A stretch of 63,858 bases of DNA, filler included, from Neophaeotheca triangularis (lineage: Eukaryota): the NCBI GenBank assembly GCA_054600435.1. It is 3 parts of 3 records of this genome, joined end to end, with 100 filler letters (N's around TTAATTAATTAA, not from the genome) between each part and the next. Parts side by side here need not be neighbours in the genome. Positions count along the whole stretch, not along the records: positions 1 to 24,416 come from BAAIJX010000113.1; 2 more parts are not named here. The stretch is one strand, 5' to 3'. Position numbers and translations under genes: made by a program. This document shows, piece by piece, positions 22,201-23,272 of this stretch. Position 1 is the stretch's first letter. Each line of letters opens with the position of its first letter. The notes beneath the pieces were generated by a model. That model was not told the origin of the DNA and ran no database searches. It saw only the letters and a list, made by a program, of their open reading frames with translations.

Positions 22201-22698
22201 CTATAAGAAGCACACAAATAGGCGAAAGACAAGATCACATAGTCATAGCGGCGACTCGAGTCATAAAGACATAAGGACTCCAAAACAGTACCTTAGCTTA
22301 AGAAGGGGGATAAGGTATACCTACTTACGAAAAACCTGAAGACAAGGAGACAAACACGAAAACTAGACCATGTTAAAGTTGGACCGTTTCTAGTTAAAGA
22401 ATAAAGAGGAAAAGTCAACTATCTCCTCTAACTCCTAAGGGACGCTAGAGTCTACCTAGTCTTCCATGTATCCTTACTCGAACTAGTAGACGCCGAGACA
22501 CTAATCTAAGACACCTTTCACCACGATCTATCTGAGGAAGAAGCCGAGTACGAGGTCGAAAAAATTCTAGACAAGGACGGTCAGAACTACCTCGTGAAAT
22601 GGAAAGGGTATCCTATAAGCGAGAACACTTAGGAACCTAAGGACAACTTACTTAACTACTAGAAGATCCTACGGCAATATCACTAGGAACTAGACTAA
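19279..22698 (+). pseudogene. pol: pol (RIP-mutated) in the -1 frame: aspartic protease, RT, RNase H, integrase, chromodomain
   Basis: IIDSGASGNF (~19408), IAYIDDILVF (20461), ETDASD (~20911), MDFIVKL..DRLTKYSHF..TDRDKLFTS, AFHPETD, KVGPF, EYEVEKILDKDGQNYLVKWKGY (~22546). Confidence 0.92.
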
Positions 22699-23272
22699 GG
22701 TCCTAAAATTCGTTAGGTAGGCTGTCTATCGAAGTCTAAGTAAGAGGATTTAAAGCTAGATTAGGACCCGGTTGATCAGGAGGAAAGTCGGGGTTAAAGA
22801 GCTCGTTACTACCTTCCTCGAGCTCGAGGAGCTCGATGTTACGCTCTTCAACAGCTATAGCCTCTCCCTCTTTCTCCTACAAACGGTCTATTTATCTCCG
22901 AAGATGCATTTCCTTAGACAATGAATAATTTGCTTCCTCTTAAGCCTCGGCTACCTTTTACTAAGTAATAACAGACGTATACCGAGCCTCTTCTATCGCC
23001 TTACGAAGACGCTCGTGATCATGACGAAGACGAGCGAACTCGTTCTCTATCACTCTCACATCGTAAGAGGAGATGTTTCGCCATATGTAGACAGCACACT
23101 TTCTAGACTGAATGTGCACCTTGTACACACGACCTACCTCCCGGCATTGTGTACACTTTCGAACCATGTTAAGAACCGTTCCGTGCGAATCCAGGAAATT
23201 GAATAACTCGTGGCGACGAGTAGTGGAAGATTTCTTTGTTTTAGGCATCGCGTTAATAAAGGAAGATGCCAT
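22652..23272 (-). pseudogene. Antisense accessory ORF of the retrotransposon (~206 codons): Zn(II)2Cys6-like motif, coiled coil and acidic aromatic tail
   Basis: CTQC-REVGRV-Y-KVHIQSRK-CAV-Y-IWRNISS-Y with all three Y encoded by TAC (RIP product of TGC); frame continues through TAG/TAA stops to TAA at 22652. Confidence 0.7.

Follow-up and report, generated by a model that had tools for sequence, protein, structure and literature searches.

Between pol and the 3' long terminal repeat (LTR) of a Ty3/gypsy chromovirus of the fungus Neophaeotheca triangularis (assembly GCA_054600435.1) lies the relic of a gene read from the strand opposite gag and pol. The explanation that we find best, and that we hold by a modest balance of probability, is that repeat-induced point mutation (RIP) has killed this open reading frame (ORF), a copy of an antisense accessory gene of about 190 aa that belongs to an ascomycete lineage of such elements, and whose product is a probable regulator of the LTR. 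Coordinates refer to the window, by which we mean the whole 63,858-nt stretch of DNA analysed. An earlier note on this DNA, made from the sequence alone, had proposed that the element encodes its own Gal4-like transcription factor, with a zinc cluster, a coiled coil and an acidic, aromatic tail, driven antisense from the 3' LTR. The ORF and its parts lie in the window as follows.

22652-23248, minus strand: antisense accessory ORF, a RIP pseudogene, with a homology-supported ATG at 23246-23248, a terminal stop at 22652-22654 and seven internal stops.
23063-23155, minus strand: six-Cys, Zn2Cys6-like cluster (C40, C43, Y50, C59, Y62 and Y70 in the window; all Cys in intact homologues).
22796-23047, minus strand: region matching the 84-residue helix (residues 68-151) of the homologue P0002, its coordinates carried over by alignment.
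22700-22759, minus strand: C-terminal motif LALxPxTW..(D/E)G..D.FW, which reads LALNPLT*TSIDSLPNEF*D in the window, both stops being W in homologues.

The sequence features on which the earlier note was built are present. An in-frame ATG at 23270-23272 on the minus strand, 65 nt from the start of the 3' LTR at 23337, opens an uninterrupted ORF of 103 aa (22961-23272), as the note had it; in one correction, the start shared with homologues is the second Met of the window ORF (MPK..., ATG 23246-23248), which lies 88 nt from the LTR. The motif C40-x2-C43-x6-Y50-x8-C59-x2-Y62-x7-Y70 was also accurately described, all three Tyr codons being TAC, as were the coiled-coil-like stretch and the tail, which correspond to a long helix and a conserved acidic and aromatic tail in homologues, and the overlap with the end of the pol chromodomain, whose match on the opposite strand shares about 32 nt with the 3' end of the ORF. 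Pfam returned no notable match for the window ORF, only weak coiled-coil noise. A search with the read-through translation matched three intact proteins at E 4e-68 to 6e-64, namely P0001 (158 aa, 76% identical, E 4e-68), P0002 (199 aa) and P0003 (198 aa). When aligned to these homologues, Y50, Y62 and Y70 all face Cys and each of the seven stops faces Gln or Trp, while 35 of the 38 residue mismatches to P0001, the nearest homologue, can be reached by C>T or G>A changes alone. As the homologues carry Cys, and Gln or Trp, at these positions, the Tyr residues and stop codons are of RIP origin. The proposed reversal of Tyr to Cys thus stands, and less mutated copies, which might have kept Tyr, have Cys instead; the tail that the note had restored by undoing RIP, LTWTSMDGLPDEFWDL, occurs verbatim in the natural homologue P0001. 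Base composition is that of a mutated repeat, with a TpA/ApT ratio of 1.66 in the element (0.74-0.76 in the GC-normal flanks) and a (CpA+TpG)/(ApC+GpT) ratio of 0.55 (1.14-1.18 in the same flanks). An unmutated public contig of 946 nt is colinear with 22639-23529, and so covers, with 95 differences, the end of pol, the ORF and 190 nt at the start of the LTR; over the whole 1601-nt stretch 22300-23900, the same run reads C for a window T at 68 positions and G for a window A at 47, against five C>T and nine G>A changes. Judged by its sequence, the window copy is a RIP-killed pseudogene that cannot make protein, and it is of interest less for itself than as a pointer to a family of antisense ORFs.

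Other public contigs that align to this part of the window vary. Their depth falls after about 22678, depth being a measure that cannot rank parts, and contigs from the same and other runs share the pol end but diverge from the window at about 22665-22686. Two joints, from 22665 to 23315 and from 22681 to 23660, appear in single contigs, the intervening letters being unread. Sister elements may carry a different segment, or none, in place of the antisense ORF.

The family to which the ORF points is large. A profile built from the three homologues was searched against 1.84 billion representative proteins and recovered 309 representative clusters at E<=1e-3, of which 85 reached <=1e-10 and 14 reached <=1e-30; of the 150 matches listed, almost all measure 60-245 aa, and 160-230 aa is typical. 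A second, word-indexed search returned 151 clusters at 90% identity, none with a precomputed Pfam domain. Sources that name these proteins call them 'hypothetical protein' or give them obvious misnomers (AcrA, galactokinase). The named organisms that hold members, Oleoguttula, Hortaea werneckii, Elasticomyces elasticus and Sporormia fimetaria, are all Dothideomycetes, and a whole-protein search of the ESM Atlas gave only unnamed Ascomycota clusters. One member of a different build, P0088 (514 aa), has ankyrin repeats (Ank_4, 1e-23), and aligns to the helix and tail of the family over its C-terminal 125 residues, the first Cys pairs being absent; possible explanations are gene fusion, faulty gene prediction across the remains of an element, and domestication.

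A scan of metagenome contigs with a search pattern that held just one of the six Cys gave 20 loci with the antisense ORF (designated here by L numbers), and 19 of these have a complete ORF with all six Cys. In 16 of the 20, pol lies on the opposite strand and ends anywhere from a 98-nt overlap with the ORF to about 300 nt past the ORF end. Of the rest, L012 and L017 are loci too short to place pol, and L001 and L002 are the same 2.4-kb non-autonomous derivative (L002, 8548-10961), which keeps gag, LTRs and the antisense ORF and has no pol. Intact pol ORFs of 1159-1258 aa adjoin the antisense ORF in L004, L007, L013, L016 and L019, gag ORFs of 729-747 aa are also found beside it in several loci, and L007, an intact example, has the full Pfam complement. 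There the two genes meet tail to tail, with gaps of 11 nt in L007 and 12 nt in L013 and overlaps of 29 nt in L016 and 98 nt in L019. In the window and in its relatives alike, the ORF occupies the opposite strand between pol and the 3' LTR and is conserved among copies. The gene belongs to the element, not to the host, and the conservation among related elements that the earlier note had asked after is there. Two further observations concern these loci. The derivative in L001 and L002 has 330-bp LTRs that are 95% identical, and its antisense ORF, at 175 aa, has lost the C-terminal W/F motif. Contigs L005, L006, L010, L011 and L016 read pol, antisense ORF, a single LTR, gag and pol in succession, as would two elements with one LTR in common; either a tandem array or collapse of a multi-copy element in the assembly may lie behind this.

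Selection has acted on the encoded protein. Because L003, L004, L006 and L007 represent one element family, Nei-Gojobori counts were made on a non-redundant set of 15 ORFs; the proportion of non-synonymous differences (pN) was below that of synonymous differences (pS) in 105 of 105 pairs, with synonymous sites saturated in all pairs but one. That pair, L011 and L013, gives a dN of 0.045 and a dS of 0.462 for the antisense ORF and hence a dN/dS of 0.098, compared with 0.139 and 0.123 for the C-terminal and N-terminal parts of pol and 0.28 for gag in the same two elements. By this one informative pair, protein-level constraint on the antisense ORF equals or exceeds that on pol. The family, its fixed position and this selection together bear out the earlier contention that the element encodes a real antisense gene.

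The host element of the window is a Ty3/gypsy chromovirus, as follows from its LTRs, target-site duplication, gag, and pol in the order protease, reverse transcriptase, RNase H, integrase with a C-terminal chromodomain. It covers 7.4 kb (16494-23874), and a self-BLAST showed no other copy within the window. Its parts are listed below.

16489-16493 (left copy) and 23875-23879 (right copy), unstranded: target-site duplication TAGGT.
16494-17031, plus strand: 5' LTR, 538 bp, with TG..CA ends and a 56-bp tandem array at 16585-16805.
17033-19129, plus strand: gag region, RIP-degraded with many stops, recognised by tblastn similarity to gag of related loci.
19300-22719, plus strand: pol region (protease, reverse transcriptase, RNase H, integrase, chromodomain), RIP-degraded.
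22549-22683, plus strand: chromodomain at the pol C-terminus (Pfam match, pol residues 1084-1128).
23324-23336, plus strand: polypurine tract AGGAGGGGGATAG, adjoining the 3' LTR.
23337-23874, plus strand: 3' LTR, 538 bp, with TG..CA ends.

The two LTRs are 92.75% identical, and all 39 of their differences are transitions. A Pfam scan of the window gag gave no match; in a read-through of pol, with X at stops, Pfam identified RVT_1 (7e-30), RT_RNaseH (9e-26), Integrase_H2C2 (7e-12), SH3_Tf2-1 and Chromo (1.9e-10). The junction of polypurine tract and LTR, ..GGGGAT(A/G)G|TGTTAC, recurs in relatives.

Intact members of the family share a distinctive protein. A basic N-terminus and a short conserved helix precede a cluster of the form C-x2-C-x6-C-(K/R)-V-H-(V/I)-(R/K)-S-G-x-C-x2-C-x6-7-C; S-T-x-R-R..L..F(I/V)...G..M is conserved ahead of the cluster, (D/N)-(V/I)-(R/K)-(V/I)-T follows it, an EAIAVEE block is conserved late in the long helix, and the tail reads LAL(S/N)P(F/L)TW..(D/E)G..D.FW. 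An AlphaFold2 model of P0002 from a 72-sequence alignment (mean predicted local distance difference test score, pLDDT, 86.4) has a helix at 8-22, short helices at 33-38 and 52-57 that each start at a CxxC, an 84-residue helix at 68-151, and two short helices in the tail. The family spacing, C-x2-C-x6-C-x8-C-x2-C-x6-7-C, falls within that of Zn2Cys6 clusters (C-x2-C-x6-C-x5-12-C-x2-C-x6-8-C), and all six Cys are found in P0002, in P0003 and in 86 of the 157 proteins gathered; their invariance in the 72-sequence alignment is circular, as those sequences were picked for carrying the motif. At E<=1, Pfam Zn_clus matches 36 of the 72 members, more than any other Pfam family does, and a single member, P0109 (22.0 bits), passes its curated cut-off of 21 bits. 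Of the Foldseek rows shown, Zn2Cys6 DNA-binding domains account for 16 of 18 with the full model (Pho7, Leu3, Lac9, Gal4, Ppr1, Put3, Hap1, AlcR; best E 1.2) and for 11 of 13 with a separate 72-residue model of the domain (pLDDT 77; best E 0.53). An all-against-48,161-chain alignment placed Lac9 first (Z 2.2; root-mean-square deviation, rmsd, 2.1 A over 33 of 33 residues), the ten chains at Z>=2 including Lac9, Ppr1 and Leu3 tied with seven unrelated chains, and superposition on Leu3 gave an rmsd of 1.5 A over 34 residues. Because three weak lines agree (spacing, Pfam and fold searches), the six-Cys module is very likely a divergent cluster of Zn2Cys6 type, though not a demonstrable member of the Pfam family; to the fold itself, two short helices that each begin at a CxxC and enclose two zinc ions, the models lend weak support, and DNA binding by the module is plausible. 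A search of the window for a canonical Zn2Cys6 gene found none. Separately, 11 members (P0023, P0042, P0096 and eight others) have sub-threshold matches to Pfam DUF5651, at best 6.7e-5 and 23.1 bits against a 27-bit cut-off, which extend over the conserved helix ahead of the cluster and over the first CxxC.

Structure prediction likewise offers weak support for dimerisation. Two copies of P0002 residues 25-160 were modelled together in three runs, with three controls, using a single model without an alignment; scores were 0.38, 0.39 and 0.38, against 0.00 for the best control, and the runs had at least 88% of their contacts in common, with a partner pLDDT of at least 72. The mark set for a dimer was reached by 21 of 30 microbial proteins solved as pairs of one chain and by none of 23 solved as single chains, and among eukaryotic proteins by 17 of 29 pairs and none of 30 single chains, although passes may reflect the predictor's memory of solved structures. 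Contacts of lowest error pair residue 81 with 116-123, 95 with 109, 99 with 99 and 102 with 102, describing an antiparallel arrangement centred near residue 101. The 84-residue helix thus probably forms a homodimeric coiled coil in these models, and since the predicted dimer is antiparallel, its zinc modules would sit at opposite ends of a long rod.

The position of the gene constrains where its expression could be controlled. From ATG to LTR boundary the distance is 44-104 nt in all 14 non-redundant relatives in which the junction was located. Because this spacer is so short, and holds the polypurine tract, the upstream control region of the antisense ORF must lie in the U3 part of the 3' LTR, read backwards. 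In the window, U3 contains the following.

23420-23425, unstranded: CACGTG palindrome, located 84 nt into U3; its counterpart in the 5' LTR is mutated.
23428-23636, plus strand: 56-bp tandem array of 3.7 copies with eight GAGCA/TGCTC, between the LTR start and a TATA-like site.
23676-23687: TATA-like site TTTATATTTAGG, downstream of the 56-bp array.

Motifs were counted in the first 400 nt of the LTRs (4673 nt in total), expectations being drawn from the internal parts of the same loci. GAGCA/TGCTC occurs 77 times against 9.2 expected, with at least two copies in 11 of 14 segments, and TCACGTG 23 times against 0.8, counts that are not independent because the elements are related. In 10 of 15 LTR segments of relatives, CACGTG stands 75-127 nt in from the start of the LTR, followed by arrays of CTGAGCA/GTGATCA-type repeats and then by a sense-facing TATATA; the 56-bp array of the window thus sits where relatives hold clustered short motifs, GAGCA/TGATCA repeats taking its place. 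Inverted GAGCA..TGCTC pairs have no clear preferred spacing. With a motif cluster between the sense core promoter and the antisense ORF, the arrangement is as in a divergent promoter.

Several observations weigh against reading the protein as a Gal4-like regulator of the LTR, and they temper the earlier proposal of a binuclear zinc cluster in a Gal4-like architecture. Zn_clus gives no match at E<=10 for P0001-P0003, the closest intact homologues, for which Pfam yielded just weak coiled-coil noise, and 71 of the 72 members fall below its curated cut-off; a profile search of PDB sequences gave nothing below E 0.15, with Lac9 and Leu3 at E 1.5-2; and the fold statistics are not significant (Foldseek E 0.53-1.2; VIA Z 2.0-2.2, tied with unrelated chains). 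In Gal4-class proteins, which classically bind CGG half-sites, a K-x-K between Cys2 and Cys3 contacts DNA. The corresponding stretch here is without this pattern, and its basic residues are not conserved in the family consensus, while the loop between Cys3 and Cys4 has a conserved V-H-x-R-S-G in place of the usual Pro-containing loop; as these two stretches differ, DNA binding or its specificity may differ from that of the Gal4 class. The predicted dimer is antiparallel (contacts with i+j of about 197-204), unlike the short parallel coiled coil of Gal4, and such a rod, if correctly modelled, has no obvious fit to closely spaced repeats. The relatedness of the elements counts on the same side, and the U3 motif clusters could equally be host-factor sites driving sense transcription. 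What survives of the architecture first proposed is the six-Cys spacing, the long helix, the acidic and aromatic tail, and a set of fold neighbours that are mostly Zn2Cys6 domains; the parallel with Gal4 is weakened by the orientation of the predicted dimer and by the DNA-contact residues, and the statistics of the Zn_clus and fold searches are weak.

With these points in the balance, a probable LTR regulator remains the reading that we favour, and we infer transcription-factor activity, antisense expression, DNA binding, a target and autoregulation as its parts. The gene, wedged between pol on one side and the polypurine tract and 3' LTR on the other, on the strand opposite gag-pol, would owe its antisense transcription to the U3 side of the 3' LTR, making the LTR a bidirectional control region. 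The protein would enter the nucleus as a dimer and regulate the element's own LTR promoter, with either sign, by activation or repression; candidate targets are the clustered U3 motifs (GAGCA/TGATCA repeats and CACGTG), which in the window may have been amplified as the 56-bp array. As the ORF and pol are tail to tail, the antisense mRNA must overlap the genomic RNA, and an effect at the level of RNA may coexist with one at the level of protein. A fuller version, in which a minimal Zn2Cys6 dimer, probably derived by capture of a host zinc-cluster factor's N-terminus, serves a widespread lineage of ascomycete chromoviruses as a sequence-specific transactivator, is expressed antisense from the 3' LTR, binds the U3 repeats and drives transcription of both the genomic RNA and its own gene in positive feedback like that of Tat or Tax, is a tentative possibility.

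Unlikely, in our estimation, is a negative regulator that limits copy number or that acts mainly through RNA, whether because antisense mRNA pairs with genomic RNA and triggers RNA silencing, or because the protein represses the LTR. In intact elements the ORF is convergent with pol and abuts or overlaps it (spacing of -98 to +12 nt), as pairing of the two transcripts would need, and HBZ, which counteracts Tax at the LTR of human T-cell leukaemia virus type 1 (HTLV-1), offers an analogy for a repressing protein. A role confined to RNA is at odds with the dN/dS and with the excess of pS over pN in every pair, both of which show selection on the protein, and a brake encoded by the element is harder to keep under element-level selection; Ty1 p22 is an example of such a brake kept by its element. 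Protein and double-stranded RNA roles have both been raised for antisense ORFs of plant elements, in passages of PMC7264820. We think it rather improbable that the zinc module lacks sequence-specific DNA binding and serves as an adaptor for RNA or for a host protein via the C-terminal W/F motif, with import of the pre-integration complex into the nucleus, targeting of integration or shielding from genome defence as its task. The divergent cluster, devoid of the DNA-contact residues of the Gal4 class, would suit an adaptor, as would a highly conserved tail motif that resembles a short linear docking motif and an antiparallel rod fit for a scaffold; yet the structural neighbours of the module are DNA-binding domains, a zinc cluster with a dimerising helix and an acidic tail is the minimal architecture of a fungal regulator, and the elements already own a chromodomain for targeting. 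The window alone, where a 103-aa ORF without a Pfam match lies in AT-rich mutated DNA, might have suggested an ORF arisen by chance, or a piece of a host transcription factor, devoid of function, that one element copy had caught. This is refuted by hundreds of homologues, by a position and orientation that recur in 16 of 20 loci, whose pol has just 39-60% amino-acid identity to that of the window, and by purifying selection as strong as that on pol.

An antisense accessory ORF beside the 3' LTR is already known, with one fungal precedent, and the earlier guess that extra 3' ORFs had been noted before was right. Boty-like Ty3/gypsy retrotransposons of Botrytis cinerea carry an additional antisense gene, brtn (Zhao et al. 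2011, Virology 417:248, as cited in passages of PMC7264820 and PMC8365987). Passages of PMC7264820 cite Boty as a non-plant case of an antisense ORF between pol and the 3' LTR, those of PMC8365987 report brtn to be missing from the current B05.10 annotation, the examined supplements of the latter do not mention it, and a passage of PMC5987419 describes a Monilinia transcript similar to both truncated Pol and BRTN. Boty, compared here by the description in these passages, is likewise a fungal chromodomain gypsy element with an antisense extra gene; brtn comes from B. cinerea, whereas the named members of the present family are all from Dothideomycetes, and our protein searches for the family returned no member named BRTN. 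Among plants, antisense ORFs between pol and the 3' LTR are listed for Grande (gene23), RIRE2, Retand and PvRetro13, with functions called unknown, in the passages of PMC7264820 consulted; they share the position and orientation described here, are conserved across copies and are suspected of a regulatory role. In the same passages they have no clear similarity to known proteins except for an SMC-like domain in PvRetro13, whereas for the present family a zinc-cluster fold is proposed and selection has been measured. With the Gal4 class (Gal4, Ppr1, Put3, Leu3, Hap1, Lac9, Pho7; PF00172), whose members are its top structural neighbours, the family shares the Cys spacing, two CxxC helices in the model and a predicted dimerising helix after the cluster; it differs in its length of about 190 aa, in lacking the middle homology region, in falling nearly always below the Pfam threshold, in its VHxRSG loop and antiparallel predicted dimer, and in being carried by a transposon rather than at a host locus. 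HBZ is also a regulator-like protein of a reverse-transcribing element encoded on the minus strand next to the 3' LTR, and the likeness is one of analogy; it differs in being a basic leucine zipper protein of a vertebrate retrovirus, with no homology to the family. Our literature searches, including passages of PMC3248453, found no zinc-cluster or Zn2Cys6 antisense gene in fungal gypsy elements, and in the literature searched the identity of the protein, its breadth and its selection appear undescribed.

The window as a whole consists of three records, joined by linkers of the form N44-TTAATTAATTAA-N44 at 24417-24516 and 48765-48864. (TTAGGG)n at 24301-24414 closes the first record, and (CCCTAA)n at 48866-48979 opens the third; as the end of the 3' LTR is only about 420 nt from the (TTAGGG)n telomere repeat, the retrotransposon is subtelomeric. 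Upstream, between the last GC-normal gene region and the 5' LTR, 14000-16490 is AT-rich (GC 0.33-0.36), with small repeats at 15124-15171 and 15795-15842, and is probably older RIPed repeat debris. The middle record (24517-48764; 24.2 kb, GC about 0.30) bears no RIP signature and has 19 tRNA genes, 18 of them on one strand, and resembles a mitochondrial genome, either complete or in large part. That the entire AT-rich block of 14-49.5 kb is RIPed was considered and ruled out, 24517-48764 being this separate, mitochondrial-like record.

For itself the window carries a modest message, that of a subtelomeric relic inactivated by RIP. The family behind it bears on a broader matter. LTR retrotransposons are generally regarded as reliant on host transcription factors. 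If the reading proposed here is true, an element-encoded regulator would give fungal chromoviruses a layer of self-control in the style of the complex retroviruses, and would account for hundreds of unannotated 'hypothetical proteins' in ascomycete genomes and metagenomes. The antisense ORF is, besides, a potential annotation marker for this chromovirus lineage, and natural copies with intact gag and pol exist (L004, L007, L013, L016 and L019), which makes the question of whether these elements regulate their own LTRs directly testable.

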